Both the position numbers and the translations under genes were made by a program. A DNA stretch of 45,106 nt. It comes from a virus (Duplodnaviria; Heunggongvirae; Uroviricota; Caudoviricetes). Of this stretch, positions 1,061-45,106 are shown piece by piece. Each line of letters begins with the position of its first letter. Position 1 is the stretch's first letter. The DNA lies in the IMG/VR virus record IMGVR_UViG_2541047951_000008; one strand, written 5' to 3'. A model generated the notes under the pieces. That model did no database searches. It saw only the letters and a list, made by a program, of their open reading frames with translations, and was not told where the DNA came from.

Positions 1061-1188
1061 ATCATGATTGGACGGTGTAAGGACAACACCAAGAAAAACA
1101 GGAAGTTAGCAGTCTCAGCAGGACACCGACCAGACGGTGAGGAGACAAAAAAGGATACGCAAAGGAGCCGCGGCTCCCGAGTGACTTG

Positions 1189-29165: not shown

Positions 29166-29232
29166 AACCCCACCTCGCAGATGCGGGTGCTGTGTAATGG
29201 AAATAAAAAGGCCACCTGACGTGGCCACCAGA

Positions 29233-30285
29233 TTATTTCCCCACCAGCTCGTTTATCTCTTTCACTGTCTGGTTAAACCGCTCTGACTCAAGCTCAACAC
29301 CTAAGGCCCGACGCCCCAGCGCCATTGCTGCTTTTATTGTGGAACCGGATCCCATAAAAAAATCAGCAACCAGATCACCAGGTCGACTACTGGCATTGAT
29401 TATTTGCCTGAGCATATCCGCCGGTTTCTCACACGGATGTTTACCCGGGTAGAACTGAACGGGTTTATGCATCCAGACATCGGTATAAGGCACGGAGACT
29501 GATACGGAGAAATAGCGCCGGAGAGATTTAAACTCATCCAGCAATTCAGAATATTTGCGATTCAGTGAATCATAAGATGCCACCAGCTGGTGGTGTGGTT
29601 GTTCCAGTTGTTGTTCCTGAAACTTCTCTGCCGCTATACGGGAAAACAGTGCCTGTAACTTCCGATAGTCAGCCTCATTCGGCAACTGCCACTGACTGGC
29701 ACCAAACCAGTGGGAAACCATATTTTTCTTACCTGTGGCTTCGGCAATTTGTTTTGCCGTTATACCCAGTTCGGCACGAGCATCCCTGAAATACGATATC
29801 AGCGGTGCCATTATGTGCTGTTTGAGTTCCCTTTCTTTTGCCGCATAGCCGTCACTTTTGCCGCGATATGGCCCCTGGTAATGTTCAGCAAACAGAACGC
29901 GCTCTGTGGCAGGAAAATATGCGCGCAGACTTTCTTTATTACACCCATTCCAACGTCCGGACGGCTTCGCCCAGATGATATGGTTAAGCACGTTGAAACG
30001 TTCACGCATCATGATCTCAATATCAGATGCCAGGCGATGCCCACAGAACAGGTAAAGGCTTCCGGCAGGTTTTAACACCCGCCAGAACTGGGCCAGACAG
30101 TGGTCCAGCCACTTAAGGTAATCTTCGTCCCCTTTCCACTGATTGTCCCAACCGTTGGGTTTCACCTTGAAGTACGGCGGATCGGTAACAATCAGGTCAA
30201 TGGAATCATCAGGCAGGGACTGAATAAAATGCAGGCAATCAGCGTTGATTAAATCAACACTGTTTATTTTTACAGTATTTTTCAT
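29233..30285 (-). CDS. DNA methyltransferase, beta-class N6-adenine/N4-cytosine type
   Basis: N-terminal motif [10 protein letters not shown] and C-terminal motif [10 protein letters not shown] (order IV...I = beta class, N6_N4_Mtase-like); located between Q and the lysis genes. Confidence 0.85.
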
Positions 30286-30435
30286 GGATCAGTAAGCGTA
30301 ACTCTGGTAGGCTCACTCTGCTTTTGCGCTAAAGCAGTGGGCCGTGGTTCGCTTGTGACCAGTAAGCATGAGCGAATGGCTGGCAGGTGCTACCAACACC
30401 CACCAGCCGCCCATTTTCACAGCAGGAAACCGCCA

Positions 30436-30663
30436 TTACTGGCAGCGTCTGAATTTATTCCCGTATCCGCCGTTATCCTTCGCCAGACCCGCCAGAACTA
30501 ACTGAGTCAGTATTAACTGGCACCGGGCTTCGCTTACTCCGGTAGTTCTCGTCATCATGCGTGGCGTTACCCACTTGTCAGCAGGTAAGAAATGAAGGAC
30601 TGCGGCGGCGGTTTCTGTCATATCTTGCTGTTTTAGCATGTCTTTTTCCCTTCTGGTTAACAT
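30436..30663 (-). CDS. Hypothetical 75-aa protein
   Basis: ORF on the late strand between Q region and MTase; no recognised domain. Confidence 0.35.
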   Translation of the reverse strand: MLTRREKDMLKQQDMTETAAAVLHFLPADKWVTPRMMTRTTGVSEARCQLILTQLVLAGLAKDNGGYGNKFRRCQ

Positions 30664-30909
30664 GACATACCAATAACTCTTGTCTAAAAAGCCAGCAAGA
30701 TAAAAGGTCAGTATTCACGACCACCAGCGTGTTTACTGTACTGCACCAAGTTTACAGGTACAAAAAAACCGCTCAGCGGCGGGTTTAAGTTGTGTGGCGA
30801 AGTAACCACTCTTAACAGCATATTTGATTTTTTACGATTGTAAACGGTTGATTATTCATCTCCAATAAAAATAATTGTGTAGGTATGCCCTTAACAATGG
30901 ATAAGAAAC

Positions 30910-31356
30910 ATGAATAAAATGACTGTACTATTACTTAGCGCAACTATCATTTCAGGTTGTACTTCTTCCGTACCATTGATAAAAAAAACTCAATCAGGAA
31001 AACCTGAGGGGGTTTATCAAAATACGACAAAAGATAAAGTCAAAGATGCCCTTGTGAATTACTGCAATAGTAGAGGGTTGATAATTTACAACGCTGATAA
31101 CAGCAGTGTTATATGTGGTAAAGAACTGGAAGGCGGGTCTGCTGTTTTTGGACAAATGTTAATCGGCAATGCCTATTCAACAACCCCGGTATCAAAAGTC
31201 AGATTTACTATCGCTCAAGTTAATAACGATACAAAAGTGTGGGCCGATATGTGGATGGAAACTCAAATGGCAATGGGGCAAGTACAACAAATGGCTATAA
31301 CAGACAACGCAAGCAAAAACACTATCCAACAACGTCTTGATGAATTAAAACCTTAA
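30910..31356 (+). CDS. Predicted lipoprotein (moron, opposite strand to late genes)
   Basis: Signal peptide with lipobox MNKMTVLLLSATIISGC; AT-rich; located between Q and the lysis cassette on the opposite strand. Confidence 0.65.
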   Translation: MNKMTVLLLSATIISGCTSSVPLIKKTQSGKPEGVYQNTTKDKVKDALVNYCNSRGLIIYNADNSSVICGKELEGGSAVFGQMLIGNAYSTTPVSKVRFTIAQVNNDTKVWADMWMETQMAMGQVQQMAITDNASKNTIQQRLDELKP

Positions 31357-31369
31357 GTAAATTAATTAA

Positions 31370-31399
31370 ATAAAATGGGGAGAATAAATCGACTCCCCA
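31370..31399 (-). terminator. Hairpin between convergent Q and lipoprotein genes
   Basis: TGGGGAG-10 nt loop-CTCCCCA; on the minus strand followed by ATTTTATTTAATT. Confidence 0.35.
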
Positions 31400-31440
31400 C
31401 ACATTAAACTGATTCAATTACCCCCTCAATAAGAGGTCTT

Positions 31441-31806
31441 CTAACGATCCATCTCTAGCTCAATTTCTAACATCATTAACATGCCATCAACTACACCTTC
31501 AGCCTTTTGCAATAAACGCCCAACCCAGCAATCAGAACGCCCATGTTTACGGGCAAGCGCCATAAACGTCATACCACCTACATAATAATCCACTAATAAA
31601 TCGTGCAAATCGCTGTTGTTCTTTTTCAGGCGAGCCATGCACCCACAAATGATCATCGCATCATCGTCACAACATTGCGGGCGGGATTTTACTTTTGAAG
31701 GGATTAGTCCTTTAAATCCTGCAGCAATAGACGACCAGGTGACATCCTCGTGATTATTTGCCACCCATGCCCCCCAACGTTCAAGAACCATTTGAATATC
31801 ACGCAT
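31441..31806 (-). CDS. Late gene antiterminator Q (phage 82 / QuuD-like family)
   Basis: [75 protein letters not shown] recognised as E. coli prophage Q antiterminator; track ORF starts 5 codons earlier. Confidence 0.85.
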
Positions 31807-31823
31807 CAACGTTCTCCACAAAA

Positions 31824-32819
31824 TCAGGCCAGCACGCCAATTGCCAGCGCACGATCGATAAAACGAAATATCAGCTCCAGCTGGGAGCCATACTTCTCTT
31901 CAAATGCCACGGTATCCGCATGCAGCTCGTCGTGATGCTTTCTGCACAAAGGCAACACAAAGAGGTCATGCGCTTTTGTACCCATTCCCCCCTGACCGTG
32001 GCCTATCAGGTGGTGGGGATCATCAGCAGGCTTTCCACAACATGCACACGGCTGTGTCTTAACCCAGCGTGTGTACTTTTCATTAACCCAGCGGCGACGT
32101 TTTGGGCGTAACATAAAAGACTCCGGCGACTCCGGATCCACTTTCAGCGCCAGCACCTTTTTCGCCTTATCCTGGATGATGCTGGTGGCAGGAACCGAAG
32201 GCACAAGGTCACTTTCCCGGGTGACAGACGGCACAACAGGCTTCGGTAATCTCAGTGCCTTACGGGCTGCACTTTCCGGTAAGGCATCCGCCAGGTCATT
32301 ACGAATCAGCCACCAGCACAGTTCCGGCATTGTCACAACGTGACTGTCATCAAAACCGAGATCCCGACGCACAACAGACAACACCCAGCGGGCACAGTTA
32401 TCCGTTGCCATTGATTCCAGCCGTTCCGTGAACTGATCGCGCAGCTGGTTATCGCAGTGCCAGCACAGACGGATTGCGCCCGGCGCGTGTCGCATTGTTG
32501 TCATGTTCTCGCTGTGCCAGTCGGAATGAGGCCACTGGCAGCCTTTTTCACGAAGTAACCAGCTTTCAAGACATTCCACGCCACCAGCACGACGGATCAC
32601 TTCCTCATTGCGGAACACGGCCCGAACGGCAGGATCATCCGCCAGCGGTTGTGATGCCGCCGGAACGGCACCACTGGCGAAAGATGAATAACGTTCCGGC
32701 TCAGGCTCCAGCAGGACACGCCCCTGCATAAACAGGGGCATCAGCTCTGAACCTGGCCTGAACAATACGATCCCCATACGCGGGGCAATTTCAGGGGTCA
32801 GTAGTGCTCTCACGGTCAC
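31824..32819 (-). CDS. Nin-region protein (YdfU/DUF968-like) with C-terminal Cys/His-rich motif
   Basis: 331 aa immediately upstream of Q; CWHCDNQL and [21 protein letters not shown]...CRKHHDELH suggest a zinc-binding/HNH-like element; start is probably GTG coupled to the upstream stop. Confidence 0.4.
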
Positions 32820-32820
32820 C

Positions 32821-33630
32821 TCAATGAACGGTATCGAGCAGCTTTAACAGCTCAGGGAATCGGGATTCGAAGAAATGCGGCTGCGTCTCGCGCGGATTTG
32901 CGGGACTGGTGATGTTCTTGCCGAACATGCAACCTTTCGCTGTCAGCGACCAGAATTTTTTGATGTTGTTAATCGCGGTACGGCTGTATCGTTCGCGTTG
33001 TTCAACGATCCCCAGCTTCGCCATCTGGTGATATGCCTGATTAGCCGTAAGGCGGATACCATACTGTTTCAGCAGTGCACTCAGCGACAGCGTAGGACGA
33101 CTTGAGCCATCAGGCGCGTCAGCAGGAGCATCAATGGCATAGCGCGGTGCCAGATTCGGTAAGCCAACAGCCTCCTGGAGTTTCTGACAGGCACCAAGCA
33201 CTGAAGAGTTAGACAGGTTTAATTCCCGGCGCATAAAGTCCAGCAGAATCACACCAGCCTGCATCTTGTCAGCAGCCTGTCCGGATAATTTTTCCGGTGC
33301 GCTGGTTACCATGTCGAAAGTACGGATCACCTTCAGATGGAATGACGGGCTGATCCACATTGCATAGGCATACACCAGTTCCTTGCAGACATACGTTCCC
33401 CGTTCATTTCCCCCATGAATCACACTCACCGGGTCAACACCCAAATTCTGGGTGTTGGTCAATTCATGAACAAGCTCAACAGTTTGTTGGCTGGAAAGAA
33501 ACTTTCCTGGCTCCTTGGTTCTGGCATTTGCACCAGATGCTACTGCTGCGCGATGCAGATCGTTCAGGCTGTAACGCCCATAAGCATCACGACGAACTTC
33601 AATACCATCAATGACCATCAGATTATTCAT
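32821..33630 (-). CDS. KilA-N domain protein (antirepressor-like)
   Basis: N-terminal RYSLNDLHRAA...GTYVCKELVYAYAMWISPSFHLKVIRTF is characteristic of the KilA-N domain. Confidence 0.7.
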   Translation of the reverse strand: MNNLMVIDGIEVRRDAYGRYSLNDLHRAAVASGANARTKEPGKFLSSQQTVELVHELTNTQNLGVDPVSVIHGGNERGTYVCKELVYAYAMWISPSFHLKVIRTFDMVTSAPEKLSGQAADKMQAGVILLDFMRRELNLSNSSVLGACQKLQEAVGLPNLAPRYAIDAPADAPDGSSRPTLSLSALLKQYGIRLTANQAYHQMAKLGIVEQRERYSRTAINNIKKFWSLTAKGCMFGKNITSPANPRETQPHFFESRFPELLKLLDTVH

Positions 33631-33649
33631 ACTTCGTTTCTCCTCTTAA

Positions 33650-34039
33650 TCAGGCGGCTGCACCCGCCGGTTTCTCATACTTACTGATAGTGATCTCGAC
33701 CTTCCCTTTCGGGATAACCGGTCCCCACTCCACCAGCATTCTTTTCACCTGTCTGTCGTCTTCCCACACACCCGCGTGGGTCAGGGCGTCAAACAGCGCC
33801 TTGTTATAGTTGTCCAGATCGCGGATCCGGTTATCCGGAGGAAACAACACGATCTCCACTGAAGCAGGTGCCGACGTTGGTTTCGGCAGACGACGTAACT
33901 GCTCAACTATTGCTGCGCACGCCGCGCTCTGAAATTTTCGCCCCGCCTCGCTTATCAGGCTCTTACCAGCAAATGCCCCTTTGTTGGGGTGTCGCCAGTA
34001 CGTGTTCACACTGGGCGGGAAAGGCAGGATCAACTTCAT
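33650..34039 (-). CDS. rusA: Holliday junction resolvase RusA
   Basis: LDNYNKALFDALTHAGVWEDDRQV matches the RusA catalytic core (E. coli RusA [24 protein letters not shown]). Confidence 0.8.
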   Translation of the reverse strand: MKLILPFPPSVNTYWRHPNKGAFAGKSLISEAGRKFQSAACAAIVEQLRRLPKPTSAPASVEIVLFPPDNRIRDLDNYNKALFDALTHAGVWEDDRQVKRMLVEWGPVIPKGKVEITISKYEKPAGAAA

Positions 34040-34362
34040 ACTTTCAGGCCCCTCTCATGTAACCAGTGGGCTGCACGCAGCCTGGCGTTCTCCTCACCGG
34101 CAAGCAGTGCGCGGATGATACCGACCGCTTCGCTGTCGTCGTCCTTCACTGCGGTATGAAGCGTTATCCCCCGGGCCACGCCACGCTTTATCGTGATGAC
34201 GCCTTTTTTCTCCAGTGCGCGAAGATGCTCCACCGCTGCATTCACCGAACGGTATCCCAGCATGGTTGCCACCTCCTGATTGGTTGGCGGAAAGCCACGC
34301 TCTTGCTGGTAAGAAATCAGCATATCCAGCACCTGCTGCTGGCATTGAGTTAACGTCGTCAT
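34036..34362 (-). CDS. Winged-helix DNA-binding protein (LexA N-terminal-domain-like)
   Basis: 108 aa; QQVLDMLISYQQERGFPPTNQEVATMLGYRSVNAAVEHLRALEKKGVI resembles the LexA DNA-binding domain. Confidence 0.45.
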   Translation of the reverse strand: MTTLTQCQQQVLDMLISYQQERGFPPTNQEVATMLGYRSVNAAVEHLRALEKKGVITIKRGVARGITLHTAVKDDDSEAVGIIRALLAGEENARLRAAHWLHERGLKV

Positions 34363-35012
34363 GCCGCCATCTCCCTGACAAGTTTTTCTGCCTGCTGGCG
34401 AACCTGCGCCAGAAACGCCTCACCACATGCCTCAAGTTCATCGCGCCCGATGTAGCTGATTGCCGGTCCCTTCCAGGTCTTGTCGAAAACAGCAATAGCA
34501 CCAGCGAAGAAAGCGCCTGTCGGCACCTGCTTCTCATCCTTCGGGATAAACCAGGCAGGCAGTTCAAAACCAATACGCCCGCGAATAAAAGCAATATGGT
34601 CCGCATCTTCCGGCCACCACACTTCGCTGGTGGCAGCTTTGATCAGGAAAACATAGCGCCCGCCCTTATCACGCATGGCACTGGCATGTTTCATGATGTA
34701 ACGCATGCCGGTGATGTATTGCCCCTCATGCTGACTGGCGCGGCTGTATGGGGGATTACCAAAGGCAGCACCTTTAAGCTCCGCAAGACGTTCTGACCAG
34801 TCATGCGCCAGCGCGTTGTCTTCCGCCGTGTAATACGCGGCACATTTGGCGTTATCACCGTCAGTGAACAGATCCAGAACAAACGGACCAAACAAGGTGT
34901 TAATTCCCCAGAAAATGTTGTCCGGCGTGCGCCACTGATCGCCCACTTCCTTCAGTTCATGGGCTGGTTTGTTCCGCAGTTCTACCAGCGCCTGGCAATA
35001 TTTATTACTCAT
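34359..35012 (-). CDS. Phage N6-adenine DNA methyltransferase (small Dam-like)
   Basis: 217 aa with NPPY catalytic motif (AAFGNPPYSRAS); nin-region position typical of lambdoid phage Dam-like MTases. Confidence 0.8.
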   Translation of the reverse strand: MSNKYCQALVELRNKPAHELKEVGDQWRTPDNIFWGINTLFGPFVLDLFTDGDNAKCAAYYTAEDNALAHDWSERLAELKGAAFGNPPYSRASQHEGQYITGMRYIMKHASAMRDKGGRYVFLIKAATSEVWWPEDADHIAFIRGRIGFELPAWFIPKDEKQVPTGAFFAGAIAVFDKTWKGPAISYIGRDELEACGEAFLAQVRQQAEKLVREMAA

Positions 35013-35106
35013 TAAGCCCCCACGTAAAAAGCATCCGCAATGTCTCCGGAAGTACAGCCCGGATGGGCTTCAATGAATTTCTGAACGTCATTTAACAGAC
35101 TCATGA

Positions 35107-36099
35107 TCACCCCCTGAATCCTGCCGGGATCTGGCTGTAGTCCACGTTGTCGTAACTGGCTTTGAAGTACGGGTCTTCACGTTTTTCTGTGTGCGTGCTG
35201 ACGGACGGCGATAAGCGCAGGGAAAGCTCATCCCATTTTTCCCGCAACTTCGACGGGCTGAGCACGTTACGGCACCAGAACGGATCGCGGCTGACGCGGC
35301 TGTACATCTCGCAGATTTGTTTGTGAGTACGACCATCCTGCACACACATCAGGCGAATTTCGTTTGCCCATGCTGTCCAGTTCGGTTCTTTGGGACGAAC
35401 CACCTCGCCGTCACATTCGGCGGCCTGCTCGTACAGGGCGATGATTTTTTTCCAGAGCCACTGTGCGCAGGTCAAATCATCCTGCGTTCCCCACTGGCGC
35501 TTTTTAGGGCTGAATACAACCGCATCAGGATGGCGAGTTAAAAACTCCTGTTCAGCCGTTTGCGTGTCCGGTTGCGAAGCGTCCGGACGAGAAGAGGTTT
35601 TATTCTCTGTAGTAATCTCTGTTGTATTCTCTGTAAGATCATTGGGCCATTTTGACCCGATGACAGCGTGTCGTTTTGAACCAATGGATCGTGTCATTTT
35701 GCGCCCATCCATCAGGTCACTTTGACCCGATGGAGAAGTGCATTTTGACCTGATGGATTCGTTCACTTTGACCTCTTCTAAAAGCTCACTTTCATAGTTG
35801 ATCGTGTAGAAGTTGGTCATGTCACGCTTCGATTTATTGAGTTGCTCGCGACGCAAAACCCCAAGTGATTTCAGGCTTGCAAATGTGCGTTTCAGAGTGG
35901 ACTCTGACCAGAACGGAAACTGCTCCAGCCACTGTTCTGTCGTGTTATAAACCCAGCGAATTCCGCCATGCTCAGTGCCTGAATTCGTTTCATTCAGCCA
36001 GTAATGAAGCTGCTGCAACACAATTGCCTCATTCAGACCAATACGGCATGCAAGATCACGATTTATCACAATGGGCTGGGATGTCATTAACAGGCTCAT
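35107..36099 (-). CDS. Replication initiator (lambda O-like) containing the origin iterons
   Basis: 330 aa downstream of the cro/cII-position genes; iteron array and adjacent AT-rich stretch lie within the coding sequence, as ori-lambda does within O. Confidence 0.65.
   Translation of the reverse strand: MSLLMTSQPIVINRDLACRIGLNEAIVLQQLHYWLNETNSGTEHGGIRWVYNTTEQWLEQFPFWSESTLKRTFASLKSLGVLRREQLNKSKRDMTNFYTINYESELLEEVKVNESIRSKCTSPSGQSDLMDGRKMTRSIGSKRHAVIGSKWPNDLTENTTEITTENKTSSRPDASQPDTQTAEQEFLTRHPDAVVFSPKKRQWGTQDDLTCAQWLWKKIIALYEQAAECDGEVVRPKEPNWTAWANEIRLMCVQDGRTHKQICEMYSRVSRDPFWCRNVLSPSKLREKWDELSLRLSPSVSTHTEKREDPYFKASYDNVDYSQIPAGFRG
35646..35778. repeat. Origin-like iterons (about 5 copies of TTTGACC(C/T)GATGG plus one inverted copy)
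   Basis: cattTTGACCCGATGa, tTTTGAACCAATGG, inverted ATCCATCAGGTCA, cacTTTGACCCGATGG, catTTTGACCTGATGG, cacTTTGACCtc; followed (in the gene direction) by a more AT-rich segment 35580-35640. Confidence 0.6.
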
Positions 36100-36108
36100 G
36101 ACCGACCT

Positions 36109-36447
36109 CTATTTCCCTGAATTTACGACGAAACTGTTCGAGCGGACTGAAGCATTCATGTTCATAGCCTTCACGGAGGTAGATAACCCGTTGTGTTTCC
36201 GGCTCCCAACGAATGACTCTGACGGGCACTCCGTAGTGATCTTTGAACCAGCGGTTAACTTGTCGCAAAGGACTGTCTCCTTCTGCCGGTTGAAATCACC
36301 CACAGCCCACTCTGCAAAGCTGTGGGTTACAATTTCCCTGTCACCTGGTACATTCACTGCATAGCAATACTCCACCTTCGCTTTTCCACCCGGTACAGGA
36401 AGCGCAATCAGTTGCGAGCGACGGTAGTGTGTTGTTAAACTGTTCAT
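36109..36447 (-). CDS. Hypothetical 112-aa protein upstream of the replication gene
   Basis: Start overlaps the stop of the upstream gene (GCATGAAC); ends 7 nt before the O-like start. Confidence 0.45.
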
Positions 36448-37028
36448 GCGTTAGTTTCTCCACAACCAGAAGCAATCGACGCCACGACGCCCGGAGCTGC
36501 ACACTCGCGGGCGTTACTCTTTTCCGGCGCACAAAAAACACGAAATAACAGTGTTAAATGCTCCTGCCACTTCGCCATTACTTGGTAGCTGTTCTCTTCG
36601 ATTTGCTCACGCTCAGCCTGGTCAATAACTCCATCAGCAGTTGCCTTGCGTAAGTACTGGGAATGCTTGCCAATCCATTCTATTGACTCCATCAGCCGCT
36701 GATTAATGTCACCATTGTCAATGTCATCAATGACCACCAGCGGCACAAACACCCCATTACTACGACGGGCTATTGCATCTGTTACATGCCTGGTACCACT
36801 GGCATCCTGTAAAACCATGGCCCACTCAAGTGGAAAAATTTGATCCCCACCGCTACGCAGTCTGTTATGCAATTGATCTTTTGCTGGGGTGATATCATCA
36901 GATTTATACAAACCAAGAATTTCTGCTGCTTCCTCATAGCCATGAGGTAAATCAGCAATCGTTCTTCGTATTGCTGCCACCAGCCATGCTGGTTGTTTAT
37001 CAACTTTCCATTCAGGTTCTTTACCCAC
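36444..37028 (-). CDS. Hypothetical early protein in cII position (CII/YdaT-like regulator possible)
   Basis: 194-aa ORF immediately downstream of cro-like gene; assignment by position only. Confidence 0.35.
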
Positions 37029-37055
37029 GGTTAATTCCTCATTTCTGTGGTGTTT

Positions 37056-37253: not shown

Positions 37254-37269
37254 TTCTGTCTCCCGTTAA

Positions 37270-37345
37270 ATTACGTCAAGCAGGAATGTAGGATATCCAA
37301 CATGCCAATGTCAAGAATCCTACATTGGCATGTGGTAGGATTGCC
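37270..37345. promoter_or_regulatory. OR-like operator/promoter region between cro and cI
   Basis: Repeated half-sites ATGTAGGAT / ATCCAACAT (e.g. aATGTAGGATATCCAACATg, ATCCTACAT, GTAGGATtgCCTACAT); on the minus strand TTGACA-17 nt-CTACAT upstream of cro. Confidence 0.5.
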
Positions 37346-37348
37346 TAC

Positions 37349-38002
37349 ATGATGAACATGAGTGATCGTATTCGCCAAAGGCGAAAAGAACTGAACCTGA
37401 CACAACAAGCACTGGCTGATTTGACTGGTGTGAACCGTGTCACGGTTACTGGATGGGAAAAGGACGACTACCAACCAAATGGAGCCAACCTTCAAGCCCT
37501 AGCCAACGCACTTAAATGCGATCCTCTGTGGCTTGTTAGCGGAAAAGGCTCGCCTGAACCAAAGATAAATCTAAAACCTGAAATATTCGCAGTTAAAAAA
37601 GTCCCCCTCATCTCGTGGGTTCAGGCGGGTTCATGGACAATGACGGAGCCTGGTGTCAGGAAAGAAGATGCTGAAGAGTGGGTTTATACTACCGCCCTTG
37701 TATCAGAAATGGCATTTGCACTACGGGTCCGTGGTGATTCAATGACCAATCCCCTCGGCTCACCATCGATACCAGAAGGTTCTATCGTTATCGTAGAGCC
37801 AGATATTATTGATACAGAGTGTATTAACGGAAAAATCGTTGTTGCCCATATCAATGGTGGGCAAGAAGCGACACTCAAAAAATTTGTTGAGGACTGGCCG
37901 AACAGGTATCTCGTCCCACTAAATCCTAACTATAAAACTATTGAATGCGGTGAGAACTGCAGAATAGTTGGTCTTGTCAAACAAGTAATAATGGATTTTT
38001 GA
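37349..38002 (+). CDS. CI-like repressor (HTH_XRE + S24 LexA-like peptidase domain)
   Basis: N-terminal HTH (LNLTQQALADLTGVNRVTVTGWE), C-terminal S24 motifs (VRGDSMTNP ... ATLKKF); start at one of the MMNM Mets (track ORF from 37325 overlaps operators). Confidence 0.85.
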   Translation: MMNMSDRIRQRRKELNLTQQALADLTGVNRVTVTGWEKDDYQPNGANLQALANALKCDPLWLVSGKGSPEPKINLKPEIFAVKKVPLISWVQAGSWTMTEPGVRKEDAEEWVYTTALVSEMAFALRVRGDSMTNPLGSPSIPEGSIVIVEPDIIDTECINGKIVVAHINGGQEATLKKFVEDWPNRYLVPLNPNYKTIECGENCRIVGLVKQVIMDF

Positions 38003-38059
38003 CACATCTTCCTCACTATCGCAAAACCGGGGTATCCCCGGTTTTTTTATGAGCCTATC

Positions 38060-38120
38060 TTTTTATGTAGGATAACCAACATAAACTCTTGACACCTACA
38101 TGTTGGATATCCTACATTTG
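38060..38120. promoter_or_regulatory. OL-like operator/promoter region downstream of cI
   Basis: Same half-site family as OR (tATGTAGGATAACCAACAT; TACATGTTGGATATCCTACAT) with TTGACA at 38090-38095 oriented to transcribe the plus-strand early-left genes. Confidence 0.45.
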
Positions 38121-38459
38121 TTTTTAGAGTTGTGGTGAATGCGCAGGCTGATGCGCGAAAGACATTGCAGCTATTGCGGAAAAGAGCTGTTCGGCGGGGC
38201 AATTAAACGCCCGTGAGAGTCTGAAATAACCGCAAGCCGGAGATCAGCACCGGTCACCACAACAGCCACTGCTTTGGCGGTACCAGTTTGTACACTTGCT
38301 TCCGGCTGGTACCGCTCTTTTTACAAAACAGAGAAGAGCATCACCGGACGACGGGCTCATAACCCAATCCATCCGGGCGGCTGCCACCGCAGGTGTTCTT
38401 CTCTGTTTTGTGGAGAAACTAACCGACCTTGCAGGGTCGATATGATGAGGAGCAGCAAA

Positions 38460-38822
38460 ATGGCTAGCGAACGCAGTACTGATGTGCAGGCATTTATCGG
38501 GGAGCTGGACGGCGGCGTATTTGAAACCAAAATCGGCGCAGTTCTCAGTGAAGTCGCTTCCGGTGTGATGAACACGAAAACCAAAGGTAAGGTCTCACTC
38601 AATCTGGAAATCGAACCGTTTGATGAGAACCGAGTGAAAATCAAACACAAACTCTCATATGTTCGCCCGACTAACCGCGGGAAAATTTCCGAAGAAGACA
38701 CCACCGAAACGCCGATGTATGTCAATCGCGGTGGTCGCCTGACTATTCTGCAGGAAGACCAGGGACAATTACTGACTCTTGCCGGTGAACCTGACGGAAA
38801 ACTCCGCGCAGCAGGTCGTTAA
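38460..38822 (+). CDS. Hypothetical early-left protein (120 aa)
   Basis: GAGGAG RBS 7 nt upstream of ATG at 38460 (MASERSTDVQAFIGELDGG...); track ORF extends upstream to 38274. Size and order resemble the yfdP-yfdT block of CPS-53-type prophages (recalled from memory, not verified). Confidence 0.5.
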   Translation: MASERSTDVQAFIGELDGGVFETKIGAVLSEVASGVMNTKTKGKVSLNLEIEPFDENRVKIKHKLSYVRPTNRGKISEEDTTETPMYVNRGGRLTILQEDQGQLLTLAGEPDGKLRAAGR

Positions 38823-38887
38823 TATCGTTTTTAATAAACTGATTATTTATCTCATCACTGAATATCTTTATATAGTGAGGACTTATT

Positions 38888-39712
38888 ATGTCTCAGAACT
38901 TAGACGCAACCGCAATTAATCAAATCCATGCCCTTATTTCTGCTCAGGGTGTTAATGAAATTATCAGTAAGATTGGTGCCGATGCTGTGGCATTGCCTGA
39001 GAACTTCCGCATTCATGATCTGGAAAAATTTAATTTAAATCGCTTCCGTTTCCGTGGTGCGCTTTCCACTGCCAGCATCGATGACTTTACCCGTTATTCT
39101 AAAGATCTTGCAAATGAAGGCACCCGCTGCTTTATTGATGCCGATAATATGCGTGCCGTCAGTGTGCTTAACCTGGGTACTATTGATGAACCAGGTCACG
39201 CAGATAACACCGCCACTCTCAAACTGAAAAAGACAGCACCGTTCTCTGCTCTGTTGTCTGTTAACGGCGAGCGTAACTCCCAGAAGTCACTGGCAGAATG
39301 GATTGAAGACTGGGCCGACTACCTTGTAGGCTTTGATGCTAATGGTGACGCTATTCAGGCAACAAAAGCGGCTGCGGCTGTCCGTAAAATCACGATTGAA
39401 GCAAACCAGACCGCTGATTTTGAAGATAATGACTTCAGCGGAAAACGCTCCCTGATGGAGTCTGTCGAAGCGAAGACCAAAGATATTATGCCAGTGGCAT
39501 TTGAATTTAAATGCGTTCCGTTTGAAGGTCTGAAAGAACGTCCGTTTAAATTACGCCTCAGCATTATCACTGGCGATCGTCCTGTACTGGTTCTGCGCAT
39601 TATTCAGTTGGAAGCAGTCCAGGAAGAAATGGCTAACGAATTTCGTGATCTGCTTGTTGAGAAATTCAAAGACAGCAAAGTAGAAACCTTTATTGGTACT
39701 TTCACCGCCTGA
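38888..39712 (+). CDS. Hypothetical early-left protein (274 aa; YfdQ-like by size and position)
   Basis: Long [25 protein letters not shown]...; no catalytic motif recognised. Confidence 0.5.
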
Positions 39713-39839
39713 TTTCATTGCTGCAAATGCCCCTGCGGGGGCATTTATGGAAACGTAATTGACTCAACAATCGCCTGATGGCGAGGGCTTCCTTTTACCC
39801 GAATTCAGCGCGGTGCAGCGCATATACGTGGAGAACAAA

Positions 39840-40376
39840 ATGTCATTTATTAAAACTTTTTCCGGGAAGCATTTTTACTATGACAAGATAAATAAAGACG
39901 ACATCGTGATTAACGATATCGCGGTTTCCCTTTCAAATATCTGCCGCTTTGCCGGTCATCTTTCTCACTTCTACAGCGTCGCCCAACATGCGGTGCTTTG
40001 CAGCCAGCTGGTGCCGCAGGAATTTGCTTTTGAAGCGTTAATGCATGATGCAACAGAAGCGTATTGCCAGGACATCCCCGCACCACTGAAACGCCTTCTT
40101 CCTGACTATAAACGGATGGAAGAAAAAATAGACGCAGTAATCCGTGAGAAATACGAGTTGCCCCCGGTTATGAGTACGCCTGTGAAATATGCCGATCTAA
40201 TCATGCTGGCAACCGAACGCCGTGATCTCGGGCTTGATGATGGCTCTTTCTGGCCTGTACTGGAAGGCATCCCGGCAACAGAGATGTTCAACGTGATTCC
40301 ACTGGCACCGGGCCACGCCTACGGGATGTTTATGGAACGTTTTAACGAGTTATCGGAGTTACGCAAATGCGCATGA
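39840..40376 (+). CDS. HD-domain phosphohydrolase (YfdR-like 5-prime-deoxynucleotidase)
   Basis: H...HD motif (AQHAVLCSQLVPQEFAFEALMHDATEAY) and downstream D; start chosen at MSFIKTFSGK giving 178 aa (track ORF from 39759). Confidence 0.65.
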   Translation: MSFIKTFSGKHFYYDKINKDDIVINDIAVSLSNICRFAGHLSHFYSVAQHAVLCSQLVPQEFAFEALMHDATEAYCQDIPAPLKRLLPDYKRMEEKIDAVIREKYELPPVMSTPVKYADLIMLATERRDLGLDDGSFWPVLEGIPATEMFNVIPLAPGHAYGMFMERFNELSELRKCA

Positions 40377-40729
40377 ATGTTTTCGAAATGGAAGGGTTTC
40401 TTCGCGGGAAATGTGTACCGCGAGATCTGAAAGTGAACGAAACAAATGCTGAGTACCTGGTACGTAAATTCGACGCGCTTGAAGCTAAATGTGCGGCACT
40501 GGAAAACAAAATAATACCAGTGTCAGCTGAACTGCCACCAGCAAATGAAAGTGTTCTGTTATTTGATGCTAACGGAGAAGGCTGGCTGATTGGCTGGCGT
40601 TCTCTCTGGTACACCTGGGAACAAAAAGAAACCGGAGAATGGCAGTGGACATTTCAGGTCGGGGACCTTGAAAACGTCAATATCACTCACTGGGCAGTAA
40701 TGCCGAAAGCACCAGAGACTAAGAAATGA
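40367..40729 (+). CDS. Hypothetical early protein (120 aa, DUF551-like C-terminus possible)
   Basis: ORF overlapping the HD-domain gene stop by 10 nt; same operon. Confidence 0.45.
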   Translation: MRMNVFEMEGFLRGKCVPRDLKVNETNAEYLVRKFDALEAKCAALENKIIPVSAELPPANESVLLFDANGEGWLIGWRSLWYTWEQKETGEWQWTFQVGDLENVNITHWAVMPKAPETKK

Positions 40730-40941
40730 GCGTGATAAAAACTCATACAGGAATTGTTATCACCCGAGACGGTGAAAAGCGGATGAAATTACATTCCACT
40801 GAAACGTCCTGGGTTGCCGGACGTTGTGAATCCTACGACAAAAAGACTGGTTACCGTTGGGGTGCACCAAACATGCGTCGCCGTCTGCTACTGGACAGCA
40901 TCAGGCCAATAAAACAGGTAGCAACCAGGGAACAAAATTAA
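40726..40941 (+). CDS. Hypothetical small protein (71 aa)
   Basis: Start overlaps the upstream stop (ATGA); no domain recognised. Confidence 0.35.
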   Translation: MSVIKTHTGIVITRDGEKRMKLHSTETSWVAGRCESYDKKTGYRWGAPNMRRRLLLDSIRPIKQVATREQN

Positions 40942-40988
40942 TTATCAGGACTGGAATTTGATATTACTGCCCGTGTGCAGCGGGCTAA

Positions 40989-41207
40989 GTGGAGAAACAT
41001 ATGCTGAACCTCGATTGCGTTCCAATCTCAACTTATTGCAAAGAAACTGGCGAAACTCCTGAAGCAATAAACAAACGTGTACAGCGCGGTGTTTGGCGTG
41101 AAGGTGTTCAGGTTTTAAAGGTTGAAGGCGTTAAGGAGAGGTGGATTGATCTTAGTGAGGTTGCAAAATGGGCCAGACAAAACTGCTCAAACTACCGCGC
41201 GGCGTAA
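40989..41207 (+). CDS. Excisionase-like small DNA-binding protein
   Basis: 72-aa basic protein directly upstream of and overlapping int; assignment mainly by position and size. Confidence 0.45.
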   Translation: MEKHMLNLDCVPISTYCKETGETPEAINKRVQRGVWREGVQVLKVEGVKERWIDLSEVAKWARQNCSNYRAA

Positions 41208-42334
41208 CAATCAGGAAACACCGCCAGGGCGAAACGATCAATATAACTTTCACCTACAAAGGAGTTAAATGTCGTGAGCCTCTTTCCAATCTGGAAGTAA
41301 CACCAAAGAACATTAAATACGCCGAGCGCACACTCGGCGAAATTCATAATAAGATCGAAAGGGGAACATTCATTTATGCGGAATATTTTCCCCGTTCTGC
41401 TCGTTTGAAAATTTTTGGTAATGCTGCTGCAGGCAAAACGGTAAAAATGTACCTGGACGAATACCTTGAAATCTGCGAAACGAGAAAACTTTCACCCTCT
41501 ACGATTGGTGGTTATAAAAAATGCCGTAGTGCGTTAGCCTCACTCCACATTTGCCCTGCAAGTGAATTAACACCAGCAATCCTGAAAGCGTGGATTCAAA
41601 GCCAGAAAACGACCTTAAAAACAATTCGCAACCAGTTATCTTTCCTGCGGTCAGCACTTGATGAAGCCGTAACCGATGGGGTACTTCAAATTAACCCCGT
41701 ATCGTTGGTAACTGCTTCGCGCTACCAAAGTGATAAGTCAGAAGCAGAAAGCAGCTACGTGGTTGATCCGCTATCACCAGCAGAAGTTGATGCATTACTA
41801 ACAGCAGCCGGAAACAAACAATGGGAGAATCTGTTCCGGTTCGCTATACATACAGGCCTGCGTAGTTCTGAATTATGTGCCCTTCGATGGCGTGATATCG
41901 ACTTTGTTGGAAAAACTGCCCATGTCCAGAGCGCAAGTGTTGTCGGTGTTATCAAAGGAACAAAGACAAAAGCCGGTACTCGTAAAGTTGAACTGACAGA
42001 AGATGCAATGTTGGCGCTGATAAATCAGAAGCCATTTACATTCATGAAGGATGCTACTGTCTTTGAAGATCCAAAGACCAATAAGCCCTGGGCAAGTGCT
42101 GATGCAATCAGGAAAAAAGCATGGGTGCCAACATTGCGAAAAGCAGGTATTCGTTACAGAAATCCATATCAAACCAGGCATACATTCGCCACCCGCCATA
42201 TCAGCCGGGGAGCAAACCTGTTTTGGCTTGCAGCTCAAATGGGGCATAAAGGGCCGGAGATGCTTTTCAGGCACTATGGCTCATATCTGAAGGAATATGA
42301 TGGACAAACAAGCTTGAAGAAGATAACAATATAA
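41168..42334 (+). CDS. int: Tyrosine site-specific integrase
   Basis: 388 aa with N-terminal arm-binding-like region and C-terminal catalytic motifs (HTGLRSSELCALRWRDID ... RHTFATRHISRGANLFWLAAQMGH ... FRHYGSYL with catalytic Tyr). Confidence 0.9.
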   Translation: MGQTKLLKLPRGVTIRKHRQGETINITFTYKGVKCREPLSNLEVTPKNIKYAERTLGEIHNKIERGTFIYAEYFPRSARLKIFGNAAAGKTVKMYLDEYLEICETRKLSPSTIGGYKKCRSALASLHICPASELTPAILKAWIQSQKTTLKTIRNQLSFLRSALDEAVTDGVLQINPVSLVTASRYQSDKSEAESSYVVDPLSPAEVDALLTAAGNKQWENLFRFAIHTGLRSSELCALRWRDIDFVGKTAHVQSASVVGVIKGTKTKAGTRKVELTEDAMLALINQKPFTFMKDATVFEDPKTNKPWASADAIRKKAWVPTLRKAGIRYRNPYQTRHTFATRHISRGANLFWLAAQMGHKGPEMLFRHYGSYLKEYDGQTSLKKITI

Positions 42335-42351
42335 TCCAAGCATGAAACTAT

Positions 42352-42375
42352 TGGCCACAATTTGTGGCCATTTTA
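42352..42375 (+). terminator. Hairpin plus T-run immediately after int
   Basis: TGGCCAC-AATTT-GTGGCCA followed by TTTTA; lies inside the 5-prime extension of the track ORF for the next gene, arguing that gene starts at 42393. Confidence 0.4.
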
Positions 42376-42392
42376 CGGAGCAAGATAGAAAC

Positions 42393-44126
42393 ATGGCAAA
42401 TCAAATTACCAAACTAAAAAATATAAATGTTGTGAAGTTTCGCGGACTGAAAAATATAAACATCGAGTTTGGTTCTCGCCTAACTGTTATTTGTGGTAAA
42501 AATGGCACATCTAAATCCACAATTCTTGGCATTATCGCCCAAATATTTAGCTTTACAAAGGACTTTACCAAAAACCCTGAGACTGATTTAACACAATATA
42601 AAACATTAACAAATGGCAGCTTCAAGTCAGCTTTCAGCGAACATTTTAGGCTTTCAGAACAATTTGATGTTCCTGGTTCAATGGACGTCAAAATTAGTGT
42701 CTATGATGGTGCATCGAACAAACATCTTGAAAAACTAACATTAGGTTTATACAGCTACAGTGACAGAGATAAATCTAGGCCTGTAGTCAGGGGAAATGAT
42801 TCAATACCGGAAAAAAACCAAAGTAGAAACGTTACTCATCCTGTTATTTTTTTAAGCTTAGCACGACTTCTTCCTATTACATTAAGGACTGATTACTCAA
42901 CACGGGATGTTCAGTACATCAATGAAAATTCTGATGAAATCAGAATGATGAGTAACCAACTCTTACTAAAAAACAATGGAAGCTCAGTAACAGCAACAAA
43001 AGGTACTATCGATTCAATGGTTGTCCATGGTGACAATTATGATCACCAATCAGTATCTGTTGGTGAAGATAATGTTGGACAATTAATCCAGGCAATTTTT
43101 TCATTTAAAAGATTGAAGGAAACTTATTCTGATTATCATGGCGGAATATTGTTAATTGATGAAGCCGATGCAGGTCTTTTCCCTGCGGCACAGTTAGAGC
43201 TAATTAATATTCTAACTAAAGCAGCAAAACAATACGATCTGCAAATAATCATGACCTCGCACTCTCCATTAATAATAGAGGATATCTATAATCGTTCAAA
43301 ACAAGATAGTGATAGCTTTAAAACAATATATCTTACAGACACATATGGAGATATTAAAACAAAGAATAATCTTTCATGGACAGATATCCACGCTGATTTA
43401 CATGTTGAAACTGTAAAAATTAATGATGACATTTGTCTTCCAAAGGCAAATGTATATTTTGAAGACAAAGAAGGTTTCGACTTTTTCAAACAATTGATAA
43501 CAGATCGAAAAATAAATAAAATATTAAATCCATTAGGAAATATAAATATTAGCTGCTCTGCCATGCTTGACTTAATGGCAAGAAAAATACCAGAATTTAC
43601 AGCTAAAAGCTTGATCGTCTTAGACGGTGATGTTGTTCACGACAACAGTGCTAATGCAAAAAAAGCCAAAAAAGAAAAAAACTTATGTTTGCTTCCAAGC
43701 ACCTTACCTCCAGACCAAATGATTTTTGAGTTTTTATATAATTTACCACCTGATGATGCATATTGGGAAAATAAAAATAAATTTACAAAAGCTGTTTTTA
43801 TGAAAACAGCTAAAGACATAATTGCAACGCTAAAGATTGGTAACGCTCCGATTGATTTAAAAATCCTTATAGATAATTATAAAAAAGTTAACAAAAACCA
43901 TGGAGGGAGAGTTAGAAAACTGTTTAAAGATTTTGCACATACGACTCAATTTCAGGCCCAAGTCAAAGGAAGAGTTAAAGATAACCCATATCGATATTGG
44001 GTCGAGAAAAATCCTGTTCAATCGGATAGCTTCAAGAATGAACTAATAAAGAGTCTTAAAGTTATTATGATAAGTGGACATGGTGTCGATTCTGCTACCA
44101 TCTCATCATATCTGTCAGATAACTAA
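42393..44126 (+). CDS. OLD-family / GajA-like protein: N-terminal ABC ATPase with C-terminal Toprim-like domain; AT-rich cargo
   Basis: Walker A GKNGTSKST, Walker B ILLIDEADAGLFP, H-loop IIMTSHSPLI; C-terminal region with conserved Glu (VYFEDKEGFDF) and DxD (IVLDGDVV) as in Toprim domains of OLD/GajA nucleases; start taken at MANQITKLKNI. Confidence 0.7.
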   Translation: MANQITKLKNINVVKFRGLKNINIEFGSRLTVICGKNGTSKSTILGIIAQIFSFTKDFTKNPETDLTQYKTLTNGSFKSAFSEHFRLSEQFDVPGSMDVKISVYDGASNKHLEKLTLGLYSYSDRDKSRPVVRGNDSIPEKNQSRNVTHPVIFLSLARLLPITLRTDYSTRDVQYINENSDEIRMMSNQLLLKNNGSSVTATKGTIDSMVVHGDNYDHQSVSVGEDNVGQLIQAIFSFKRLKETYSDYHGGILLIDEADAGLFPAAQLELINILTKAAKQYDLQIIMTSHSPLIIEDIYNRSKQDSDSFKTIYLTDTYGDIKTKNNLSWTDIHADLHVETVKINDDICLPKANVYFEDKEGFDFFKQLITDRKINKILNPLGNINISCSAMLDLMARKIPEFTAKSLIVLDGDVVHDNSANAKKAKKEKNLCLLPSTLPPDQMIFEFLYNLPPDDAYWENKNKFTKAVFMKTAKDIIATLKIGNAPIDLKILIDNYKKVNKNHGGRVRKLFKDFAHTTQFQAQVKGRVKDNPYRYWVEKNPVQSDSFKNELIKSLKVIMISGHGVDSATISSYLSDN

Positions 44127-44136
44127 TTGATTAAAA

Positions 44137-44172
44137 AAGGGTTTTATGTGATGGCCATAAAGCCCTTTTTTT
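44137..44172 (+). terminator. Rho-independent terminator after the ATPase gene
   Basis: AAGGGTTTTATG-loop-CATAAAGCCCTT (one G-U pair) followed by TTTTTTT. Confidence 0.5.
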
Positions 44173-44206
44173 GATATACTTTAGATCTGACATTTAGAGG
44201 TATCAT

Positions 44207-45106
44207 ATGCGTTTTAACACCCCACTTCGCTATCCTGGCGGTAAAGGCAAGCTTGCAAATTTCATGCTTCGGATTATTGAAGAAAATAATCTTTCGCCTA
44301 TACATTATGCCGAACCATATGCTGGGGGTGCTGGTTTAGCATTGAAACTGTTACATCTAAATGCAGCTGAAAAAATCATCCTTAATGATATTAATATTTC
44401 TGTTTATGCTTTTTGGCACAGTGTATTAAATCATGCAGATCAATTATGTTCTTTAATTGAAAGAACAGAAGTTACAATGGATGAATGGTTTAGGCAGAAA
44501 GATATAATTAATAATCCTAAAGACCATGATCTTTTAACAATTGGTTTCTCAACCTTTTTTCTCAATAGAACAAATCGTTCTGGAATATTAAAAGGTGGAG
44601 TAATTGGCGGTAAAAATCAAGAAGGGAAATGGAAGCTTGACGCTCGCTATAATAAGAGTGATTTGATTTCTCGAATCCATAAAATATCAGAAAATCGTCA
44701 CAGAATAGATTTATATAACATGGATGCAATTGATTTCATTAAAAAAATAGTTACTCAATTGCCACAAAACTCATTAACATATTTGGATCCACCTTATTAC
44801 ATAAAAGGTAAAGGTTTATATATCAACCATTATGATCATGATGATCATGTTAGGGTTGCAAAAGTCGTACAGAATAATATTAAAACACCTTGGATTGTTT
44901 CTTACGATAACACTCCTGAGATCCAAGCTATGTATAAGACATCATCATTAGTATATGGAATAAACTACAGTGCTCAAGATCGGTACAAAGGATCTGAGGT
45001 AATGTTCTTCAGTGAACGATTGAAAATCTTTAAAACAGATGATCCAACTAAGGTAAAAGCGCCTGTATTTAAAAGAGGATGTGTTGACGACCACATCCAG
45101 ACATAA
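44207..45106 (+). CDS. Dam-family (D12 / alpha-class) N6-adenine DNA methyltransferase
   Basis: N-terminal RYPGGKGK and motif I EPYAGGAG, C-terminal motif IV YLDPPYY (order I...IV as in Dam/T4 Dam); GAGG RBS; AT-rich; ORF ends at the window edge. Confidence 0.85.
   Translation: MRFNTPLRYPGGKGKLANFMLRIIEENNLSPIHYAEPYAGGAGLALKLLHLNAAEKIILNDINISVYAFWHSVLNHADQLCSLIERTEVTMDEWFRQKDIINNPKDHDLLTIGFSTFFLNRTNRSGILKGGVIGGKNQEGKWKLDARYNKSDLISRIHKISENRHRIDLYNMDAIDFIKKIVTQLPQNSLTYLDPPYYIKGKGLYINHYDHDDHVRVAKVVQNNIKTPWIVSYDNTPEIQAMYKTSSLVYGINYSAQDRYKGSEVMFFSERLKIFKTDDPTKVKAPVFKRGCVDDHIQT

Follow-up and report, generated by a model that had tools for sequence, protein, structure and literature searches.

Why should one prophage encode three DNA methyltransferases (MTases) of three different classes within about 16 kb, and do all three serve the same end? 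The question is raised by IMG/VR virus record IMGVR_UViG_2541047951_000008, a stretch of 45,106 nucleotides (here, 'the window', meaning the whole of the DNA that was analysed), and particularly by its positions 29,233 to 45,106. A preliminary description had viewed these genes as multiple orphan MTases, suggestive of layered anti-restriction or epigenetic functions, with only the last of the three paired with a putative nuclease. The answer that we consider likely is instead a division of labour: two MTases that would act against restriction during lytic growth, and alongside them a cargo module, as yet uncharacterised and resembling restriction-modification, that consists of the third MTase and an adjoining ATPase and which lies at a hotspot between the integrase gene and attR. 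The third MTase, that is, should be read as half of an obligate pair rather than as a third layer of orphan methylation, as an MTase adjoins the ATPase in 78 of 80 loci. The genes in question are as follows.

29233 to 30285, minus strand: MTase 1, a beta-class N6-adenine MTase of the M.EcoGI/GII family, 350 amino acids, an orphan in the late operon (Pfam, motifs, identity to M.EcoGII).

34359 to 35012, minus strand: MTase 2, a small phage N6-adenine MTase, 217 amino acids, with NPPY, an orphan in the delayed-early (nin-like) operon (Pfam, NCBIfam, motif).

42393 to 44126, plus strand: an OLD-like ABC ATPase, 577 amino acids, with a Toprim-like C-terminal domain, the putative effector partner of MTase 3 (Pfam, PHROG, invariant residues, model).

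44207 to 45106, plus strand: MTase 3, a D12/alpha-class N6-adenine MTase, 299 amino acids, the putative modification half of the two-gene module, ending on the last base of the window (Pfam, PADLOC, motifs).

All three MTase open reading frames (ORFs) indeed are found at these coordinates, each scoring above the curated Pfam cut-off for a different MTase family, and the order of their motifs (beta; small phage NPPY; alpha/D12) fits with there being three classes. Degeneracy of the catalytic motifs had been raised as something that would undo this description, and upon examination these motifs are intact in all three translations. The genes also lie where they had been said to lie, i.e., in the late region, in the nin or delayed-early region, and in cargo beside the integrase gene.

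MTase 3 reaches 70.9 bits against Pfam PF02086, MethyltransfD12 (cut-off 22), and its EPYAGGAG (residues 36-43) precedes its DPPY (194-197) by about 150 residues, which is the alpha/D12 order. Of the earlier label, 'D12/alpha-class Dam-like', the first part therefore stands but the second does not, since with the NCBIfam Dam subfamily model TIGR00571, which describes D12-class GATC MTases, MTase 3 scores just 56.6 bits versus a cut-off of 114.85. Its best PADLOC match is PD-Lambda-5_B (E 2e-124, 412.6 bits), with residues 1-282 aligned to positions 1-283 of the 291 in that model. It shares 89% identity with a copy carried by Citrobacter phage phiNP; identity is 51% with the MTase of a P2-hotspot pair, which serves here as a stand-in for PD-lambda-5, i.e., its MTase is taken as PD-lambda-5 B, the size and layout of the pair fitting those of the published system (2,460 vs 2,461 bp). 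Among solved structures there is a single distant relative, 7m6b.

What carries the argument is the company that these two genes keep. A scan seeded with the ATPase, using one genome per species, returned 80 loci, from Proteobacteria, Bacteroidota, Mycobacterium, Listeria, Geobacter, and Acidobacteria. An MTase 3 homologue adjoins the ATPase in 78 of these, with the remaining two ending at contig edges, and in approximately 72 of the 80 that MTase lies directly downstream, on the same strand, following a gap of 41-130 bp. No third conserved gene was found around the 80 ATPase loci; an apparent cluster of genes from 29 loci, considered as a third component, was rejected as it is an antisense ORF within the ATPase gene. 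The pair is present in an integrative and conjugative element (ICE; ATPase 55%, MTase 66% identity), between icd and intE of an e14-like prophage (47% and 56%, respectively), and, with a distant ATPase homologue (25% identity, E 5e-30), beside the integrase gene of a Streptococcus prophage. In phiNP, which is a functional, packaged, plaque-forming temperate phage, integrase, ATPase, and MTase genes are found together at the attP end, with 87-89% protein identity.

The same question was asked starting with the MTase, by way of a reverse scan of IMG/VR that retained the 80 best viral contigs. Among these, 40 have an ABC-ATPase partner, 27 a partner of the ParB/PD-lambda-5A type, 2 have both, 1 has a partner of another type, and 10 have none; of those ten, five lack room for an upstream gene while the other five have the room and no recognised partner. 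The pair itself is present in IMG/VR viral contigs at 99% identity. Thus the ATPase is never found without the MTase, at least among the 80 loci, whereas the MTase family takes two unrelated partners. This one-sided dependence, of the ATPase on the MTase, is what would be expected if the MTase shields the cell from its partner, and the pair displays the obligate linkage, of modification enzyme with partner, by which restriction-modification systems are recognised.

Two observations on gene neighbourhoods may be set alongside. About 20 of the 80 ATPase loci have the pair lodged inside a DISARM-like cluster, flanked by genes for a DrmD-like SNF2 helicase and a type III-like MTase, which is the case in Betaproteobacteria and some Bacteroidota (e.g., loci L043, 2106-9288, and L062, 2083-9284, plus about 18 more within L022-L084). 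The two partner types, in turn, can occur around one and the same MTase, as in Vibrio phage ValB1MD-2 (L090, 1952-5970) and loci L144 and L147, where the MTase has ParB_N-like genes upstream and an AAA_15 ATPase gene downstream; the latter is convergent with it in ValB1MD-2 and shares its strand in L144 and L147.

What might the ATPase be doing? Its true start, at 42393, corresponds to M18 of the longest ORF, as judged by comparison with homologues. It belongs to Pfam families AAA_15, AAA_21, and AAA_23, and is a full-length match (E 6e-201) to PHROG 3940, 'unknown function'; a literature search on COG3950 gave nothing useful. Invariant among homologues are residues of Walker A (G35-K36..K41-S42) and Walker B (D256-E257), along with H290, E357-D358, and D411-x-D413, and the protein has the N-terminal ABC ATPase, with Walker A, Walker B, and H-loop, by which the OLD family is defined. 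Its structure is that of an ABC ATPase fold and its best matches, both in sequence and in structure, are PtuA, AriA, GajA, and retron ATPases. Matches to PADLOC models are generic, that is, to PtuA, AriA, and GajA via P-loop regions.

For the C-terminal half of the ATPase no PADLOC model gives a match, no Toprim or OLD sequence model recognises the domain, and nothing significant was obtained either with an alignment profile against PDB sequences or with single sequences against Pfam. When modelled separately, however, residues 330-577 (predicted local distance difference test, pLDDT, of 93) form a four-strand beta-alpha-beta unit that is followed by a helical bundle, with E357 after beta-1 and D411-x-D413 after beta-3. 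That beta-alpha-beta arrangement, with Glu after strand 1 and DxD after strand 3, reportedly is the layout of Toprim as described in 1998 by Aravind and colleagues. The top Foldseek match of this domain, weak at E 0.39, is to the C-terminal region of a Xanthomonas OLD protein; the best of the long structural alignments are to Toprim nucleases, and AriB also is among the top matches. The ATPase is likely a nuclease, as modelled, by virtue of this Toprim-like domain, to which its resemblance nonetheless is weak. Of the claim that only the last MTase is paired with a putative nuclease, the pairing holds, i.e., an ATPase adjoins, while 'nuclease' is better worded as a prediction.

The closest experimentally validated relative is PD-lambda-5 (Vassallo et al. 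2022, PMC9519451), a system from ECOR7 that came out of a functional selection, that carries the description 'ParB/HEPN, methyltransferase', and that gave protection against nearly every phage tried. Its cloning needed an mrr-deleted strain (PMC9519451), which implies that its MTase is active. Protection was strongest against T-even phages, and the authors' term for it is a compacted prophage 'RM+Abi' system (PMC9519451). In addition to the likeness of MTase 3 to PD-Lambda-5_B, both systems consist of two genes carried as prophage cargo, in which the effector gene precedes that of the MTase. The difference is in the partner, which here is an ABC ATPase but in PD-lambda-5 A is a ParB/HEPN protein of approximately 500 amino acids, with no similarity between the two: BLASTP of the ATPase against the 501-amino-acid partner from the P2 hotspot gives E 2.6, and PD-Lambda-5_A is absent from the best 25 of the 117 PADLOC families that the ATPase matched. 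By the PADLOC definition this locus consequently is not PD-lambda-5, as the B component is present while the A component is not, and PADLOC v2 does not call the pair as any system.

Other known systems resemble the pair in part. OLD nucleases (P2 Old, GajA of Gabija, and the retron ATPase-Toprim proteins), along with AriA/AriB of PARIS, share with it an N-terminal ABC ATPase of the AAA_15/21 type and a Glu plus DxD on the (here modelled) beta-alpha-beta core of the next domain, and these are defence effectors that are carried by phages. The ATPase differs from them in the long helical extension of its C-terminal domain, residues ~440-577. There are four OLD classes, and to our knowledge none is defined by an MTase partner. 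The term 'methyltransferase', moreover, does not occur in a 2023 review of the OLD family (PMC10568477). A link between an OLD nuclease and an MTase in Pseudomonas aeruginosa PAO1161 (PMC6945700) was considered and set aside as irrelevant, the genes there being unlinked. With classical Type II restriction-modification the pair shares the tight linkage of an MTase to a putative nuclease, with the nuclease-like gene never found without the MTase. It differs in that the putative nuclease is a 577-amino-acid ATP-binding protein, not PD-(D/E)XK, HNH, or GIY-YIG, and in that there is no controller protein. None of the DISARM core genes (drmA, drmB, and drmC plus drmD/drmMI or drmE/drmMII) is found in the window, and a search of the literature found no paper describing the ATPase-MTase pair.

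That the pair belongs to the prophage, and not just to its surroundings, follows from the boundaries of the element. The window is an Escherichia coli lambdoid prophage, of an mEp460/cdtI/phiNP-like type, that is integrated at ssrA. Its 16-kb stretch is 100% identical to E. coli MS21324 (NZ_CP082045.1), with several further E. coli chromosomes nearly as close; the closest phage records are mEp460, cdtI, PhiR40_1, and several Shiga toxin (Stx) 2c phages, with similarity to all of these ending before the integrase gene. As based on RefSeq annotation and the list of ORFs, genes run from smpB, ssrA, and a low-GC (guanine plus cytosine) 680-amino-acid ORF at the left end, through minus-strand lambdoid tail, head, and lysis genes, then Q, a nin-like early operon, cro/cI, and yfdPQR, to the plus-strand integrase, 'AAA family ATPase', and 'DNA adenine methylase' genes of the right end. 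The last of these finishes exactly at the window end, and glaH starts ~780 bp beyond. Two features delimit the pair on its inner side and the prophage on its left.

41168 to 42334, plus strand: tyrosine integrase (Arm-DNA-bind_2 plus Phage_integrase; Pfam), the last core prophage gene before the cargo.

1034 to 1060, plus strand: attL core, the 3' end of ssrA (tmRNA), as found by a direct-repeat search on the extended window.

The last ~20 nucleotides of ssrA (window 1034-1053, CGGGTTCAACTCCCGCCAGC) recur 79-98 bp past the stop codon of MTase 3, before glaH. Each copy of this repeat is followed by about 190 bp of similar sequence, ~92% alike and inclusive of a terminator-like hairpin, with the attR copy (window-equivalent 45185-45310) being that compared with window 1034-1162; Rfam, furthermore, detects a 3' fragment of tmRNA at the distal copy, spanning 28186-28200 of L001, the locus by which the window was extended. 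Citrobacter phage phiNP integrates at the ssrA 3' end via a 25-bp attP/attB (PMC6456863), with which the ssrA-end sequence of the window agrees. As a repeat of the ssrA 3' end lies distal to MTase 3, all three MTase genes are found within one att-flanked prophage.

The gap between the integrase gene and attR, within this prophage, is variable. The same integrase is present in 411 of the E. coli genomes surveyed (5,426 complete genomes), with the ATPase and MTase behind it in 84 and the integrase alone in about 327. In genomes possessing the integrase gene without the pair, homology stops 15-35 bp before the integrase stop codon, and in E. coli CFT073 the same integrase gene is followed, in place of the pair, by two unrelated, opposite-strand hypothetical genes (L004, 5187-6375). 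Given this other cargo, along with homology ending near the integrase stop codon, the gap is a variable cargo hotspot of which the pair represents one alternative filling. GC content, in turn, falls from ~45-48% to 32-38% across the ATPase and MTase 3 genes. JJ1886, the reference strain for sequence type (ST) 131, has an identical ATPase and a 99.9% identical MTase gene, the latter being perhaps M.Eco1886ORF14565P, which is a guess.

On the opposite end of the prophage from the integrase gene, directly after attL/ssrA, there is another island of low GC (32-35%), and in it the 680-amino-acid ORF (1953-3995, plus strand). This ORF has no Pfam or PADLOC match and just a marginal match to a PHROG (E 0.001), and it may be further cargo, found on the other side of attP. 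At approximately 26685-26834 (minus strand), beside the gene for the small terminase (DUF1441), RefSeq annotates a truncated HNH endonuclease pseudogene.

Turning to MTase 1, the beta class that had been assigned to it is retained and can be sharpened to the M.EcoGI/GII family. It reaches 145.9 bits against Pfam PF01555, N6_N4_Mtase (curated cut-off 26.7), matches PADLOC MTase_II model PDLC03265 (E 3e-152), and has TDPPYF (residues 33-38) ahead of FMGSGST (~residue 310), i.e., motif IV before motif I, as is typical of the beta class. Over its full length it is identical to M.EcoGII at 281 of 349 positions (81%, 2 gaps), as compared with a sequence from the supplement of the SUPREM paper (PMC11551740), the text of which was machine-read such that a few residues perhaps are wrong. 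M.EcoGII and M.EcoGI, which are 95% identical to each other, are encoded by prophages of E. coli O104:H4; they methylate adenine in any context, are not expressed in the lysogen, and are harmful to the cell if expressed constitutively (PMC5778455). An M.EcoGI-like gene in ST131 strain EC958 is likewise silent (PMC4659465). MTase 1 and M.EcoGII (Murray et al. 2018, PMC5778455) are of nearly the same length (350 and 349 amino acids, respectively), share the order DPPY, target-recognition domain (TRD), FxGxG, and are both encoded by lambdoid prophages. They differ at 19% of MTase 1 residues, the central TRD included, with both non-specificity and silence in the lysogen being features of M.EcoGII. 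A literature search found no mention of the accession of MTase 1.

The position of MTase 1, downstream of Q (31441-31821) and upstream of the holin gene, is the slot that in Stx phages is occupied by stx genes, as seen on the map of VT2-Sakai. Between Q and MTase 1 there is a further feature.

30768 to 30864, minus strand: promoter-like sites plus a terminator-like hairpin (GCCGCTGAGCGGT followed by T7), in a pR'/tR'-like layout, as detected by consensus scan only.

The promoter-like sites of that layout are at ~30817-30864 and the hairpin with its T-run at 30768-30780. A second hairpin, at 29210-29226, immediately precedes the holin gene, on the 3' side of the stop codon of MTase 1, and between 28900 and 31900 there are 12 terminator-like sites versus an expectation of 2.9. 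The natural if weak reading, from position and consensus scans, would be that MTase 1 lies within the Q-dependent late transcript.

Two neighbours of MTase 1 deserve mention. An ORF of 148 amino acids (30910-31356, plus strand) occupies the opposite strand in the interval that separates Q from the promoter-like sites of the late region. With a promoter-like site of its own (30891-30920), and with a full-length match to PHROG 3152, 'unknown function', it is moron-like in appearance. Between Q and a KilA-N gene there is a DUF968 protein (31824-32819, minus strand; YdfU family in the annotation of related phages) with a marginal match to the HNHc_6 nuclease (26.9 bits versus a cut-off of 26.6). 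This DUF968/HNHc_6 gene is common among lambdoid phages, and neither MTase 1 nor MTase 2 has a nuclease gene that is specifically linked to it. These two MTases, that is, are the orphans that they had been said to be.

MTase 2 scores 156 bits against Pfam PF05869, Dam (cut-off 28.1), and 255.6 bits against NCBIfam TIGR01712, phage_N6A_met (curated equivalog cut-off 97.05). Its GNPPY (residues 85-89) is shortly preceded by a motif-I-like FVLDLFTDG, with no large insert between. The gene is found within tightly packed, overlapping early genes, between the replication genes and Q, with its stop codon overlapping the start of the next gene (34036-34362). Copies with an identity of 99% or more are present in 38 phage records, which include Stx2a and Stx2c phages as well as phages induced from ECOR13. 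A search of PDB sequences found no solved relative. Several phage records, as well as one PHROG (33262), label homologues of MTase 2 'phosphoadenosine phosphosulfate reductase', which probably is a propagating annotation error that originated with fusion proteins.

The family member of characterised specificity with which MTase 2 was compared is M.EcoVT2Dam of phage VT2-Sakai, which methylates GATC (PMC6602927). Likenesses within this TIGR01712-PF05869 family are the NPPY, small size, the lack of an obvious TRD, and a nin or delayed-early position, as in VT2-Sakai. Transfer of GATC specificity to MTase 2, which is longer by 42 amino acids, nevertheless was rejected, as identity is just 31%, over 144 aligned residues. 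Motif counts supply no usable hint of specificity. Within the prophage, GGCC and GATC both show the mild depletion that E. coli prophages usually have, with the GATC count (159 observed vs 206 expected) saying nothing either way as to the site of MTase 2.

How these pieces might work together can be described as follows. From what is known of the M.EcoGII family, in combination with gene position, MTases 1 and 2 are viewed as lytic-cycle anti-restriction enzymes. MTase 1, as an M.EcoGII-type enzyme encoded between Q/pR'-tR' and the lysis genes, would be made solely after Q antitermination. It would then methylate phage DNA heavily as this is replicated and packaged, so that adenine-sensitive restriction would be weakened when the next host is infected. 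MTase 2, as a product of the delayed-early operon, would have the same task at an earlier stage of lytic growth. MTase 3 and the ATPase, as a low-GC, two-gene module between the integrase gene and attR, would instead serve the lysogen against other phages: MTase 3 would mark host and prophage DNA while the ATPase, via its Toprim-like C-terminal domain, would attack unmarked incoming DNA, which is the logic of restriction-modification. PD-lambda-5 uses the same MTase family but with a ParB/HEPN protein standing in place of the ATPase. More speculatively, a non-specific MTase 1 might also cover MTase 3 target sites, such that progeny DNA would be pre-protected against the same module upon reaching a new lysogen.

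We are evenly poised over a broader claim, that the ATPase (PHROG 3940) plus D12 MTase represents an undescribed, widespread, two-gene defence family of phages and mobile elements. It would be a sister to PD-lambda-5 in which the ParB/HEPN effector has been exchanged for an ATP-driven, Toprim-like nuclease, and would constitute a fifth, methylation-gated OLD-type context.

A number of points weigh against this account, that is, of two lytic-cycle enzymes plus a restriction-modification-like module. The 81% identity of MTase 1 to M.EcoGII does not prove non-specificity, and the role given to MTase 2 is predicted from family and position, with M.EcoVT2Dam a distant guide. The density of promoter-like sites around the module does not exceed that of shuffled sequence. 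The attR core lacks 5 nucleotides (CTCCA) of the 25-bp phiNP site and therefore the prophage perhaps is no longer excisable, in which case the lytic-cycle roles of its MTases may be vestigial in the host strain. Lastly, the T-even range of PD-lambda-5, along with its 'RM+Abi' designation, suggests that this MTase family may not be one of simple restriction-modification.

The main rival, which we view as unlikely, builds on that last point. The pair, from this perspective, is an abortive-infection or sensor system, of the PARIS, Septu, or retron-ATPase kind, with the ATPase sensing a phage protein or else the loss of methylation, its C-terminal domain killing the cell or cutting RNA, and the MTase acting as regulator or antitoxin. 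The best matches of the ATPase, i.e., PtuA, AriA, GajA, and the retron ATPases, all indeed are from sensor-type systems, and AriB, which is among the top matches of the C-terminal domain, has a Toprim domain that cleaves tRNA (PMC12839542). T-even phages, against which PD-lambda-5 is strongest, resist ordinary restriction-modification, and the nesting of the pair in DISARM-like clusters is as seen with 'backup' effectors. None of the PtuA-, AriA-, GajA-, or retron-type systems needs an MTase, however, whereas strict dependence on an adjoining MTase is what marks out a nuclease against which modification protects. The catalytic site of MTase 3, in addition, is complete.

It is improbable that all three MTases are independent orphans, supplying layered protection against restriction, with the ATPase unrelated to MTase 3. 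Multiple MTases, including several orphans, admittedly are common in phages (discussion of PMC5778455). MTases 1 and 2 occur together in mEp460, cdtI, and PhiR40_1, and phiNP has, besides its copy of MTase 3, another MTase in its early-left operon. A density of three MTases per 16 kb far exceeds that of the E. coli chromosome overall but is not unusual for lambdoid phages, and multi-MTase prophages, the M.EcoGII family, and small phage N6-adenine MTases are already known. Several observations, however, speak against MTase 3 being an orphan: its homologues adjoin the ATPase across phyla, mostly immediately downstream and on the same strand; its family almost never is alone in viral contigs; its PADLOC match is to component B of a validated defence system of two genes; and the pair travels as a unit among lambdoid phage, e14-like prophage, ICE, and Streptococcus prophage. 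The epigenetic functions that had been suggested as an alternative find no support in this analysis.

We give equally little credence to one or more of these MTases being an inactive relic. The damage to the attR core might be so read, and in EC958 neither the M.EcoGI-like nor the prophage D12 MTases give a methylation signal or transcript during laboratory growth (PMC4659465). Yet S-adenosylmethionine-binding and catalytic motifs all are intact, the three ORFs are full length, many genomes and phages have near-identical copies, and lytic-cycle genes are expected to be silent in the lysogen. Lastly, that MTase 3 and the ATPase are outside of the prophage, as a separate chromosomal defence islet between prophage and glaH, is very improbable, for despite the sharp drop in GC after the integrase gene, the variability of the ssrA-glaH interval (with its other genes in CFT073), and the failure of relatives such as mEp460 to match beyond that point, the distal ssrA repeat puts the pair inside the att-flanked unit, packaged phage phiNP has the same three genes, and near-identical pairs are found in viral contigs.

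What does this two-part reading, of lytic-cycle MTases plus a cargo module, imply? MTases 1 and 2 teach nothing new, being standard lambdoid anti-restriction enzymes within what is, in terms of its multiple MTases, an ordinary prophage. The pair is another matter. By analogy it is a restriction-modification-like, PD-lambda-5-related module with a swapped effector, one that probably protects the lysogen against other phages. The MTase of PD-lambda-5, a system that is validated but mechanistically unexplained, belongs to a family that pairs with two unrelated types of effector, occasionally both at once, and does so across temperate phages of several phyla. The ATPase version, present in JJ1886 among the 84 E. 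coli genomes, is missed by current models of defence systems. An MTase gene of ST131 clade C has been listed as unassigned (PMC4659465), and if the pair were confirmed as defence then this would explain that lineage-specific MTase of clade C genomes, though the link is a guess. Such confirmation would also add a methylation-gated member to the family of OLD/ABC-ATPase effectors, and would offer a tractable system in which effectors are exchanged while the modification module stays fixed.

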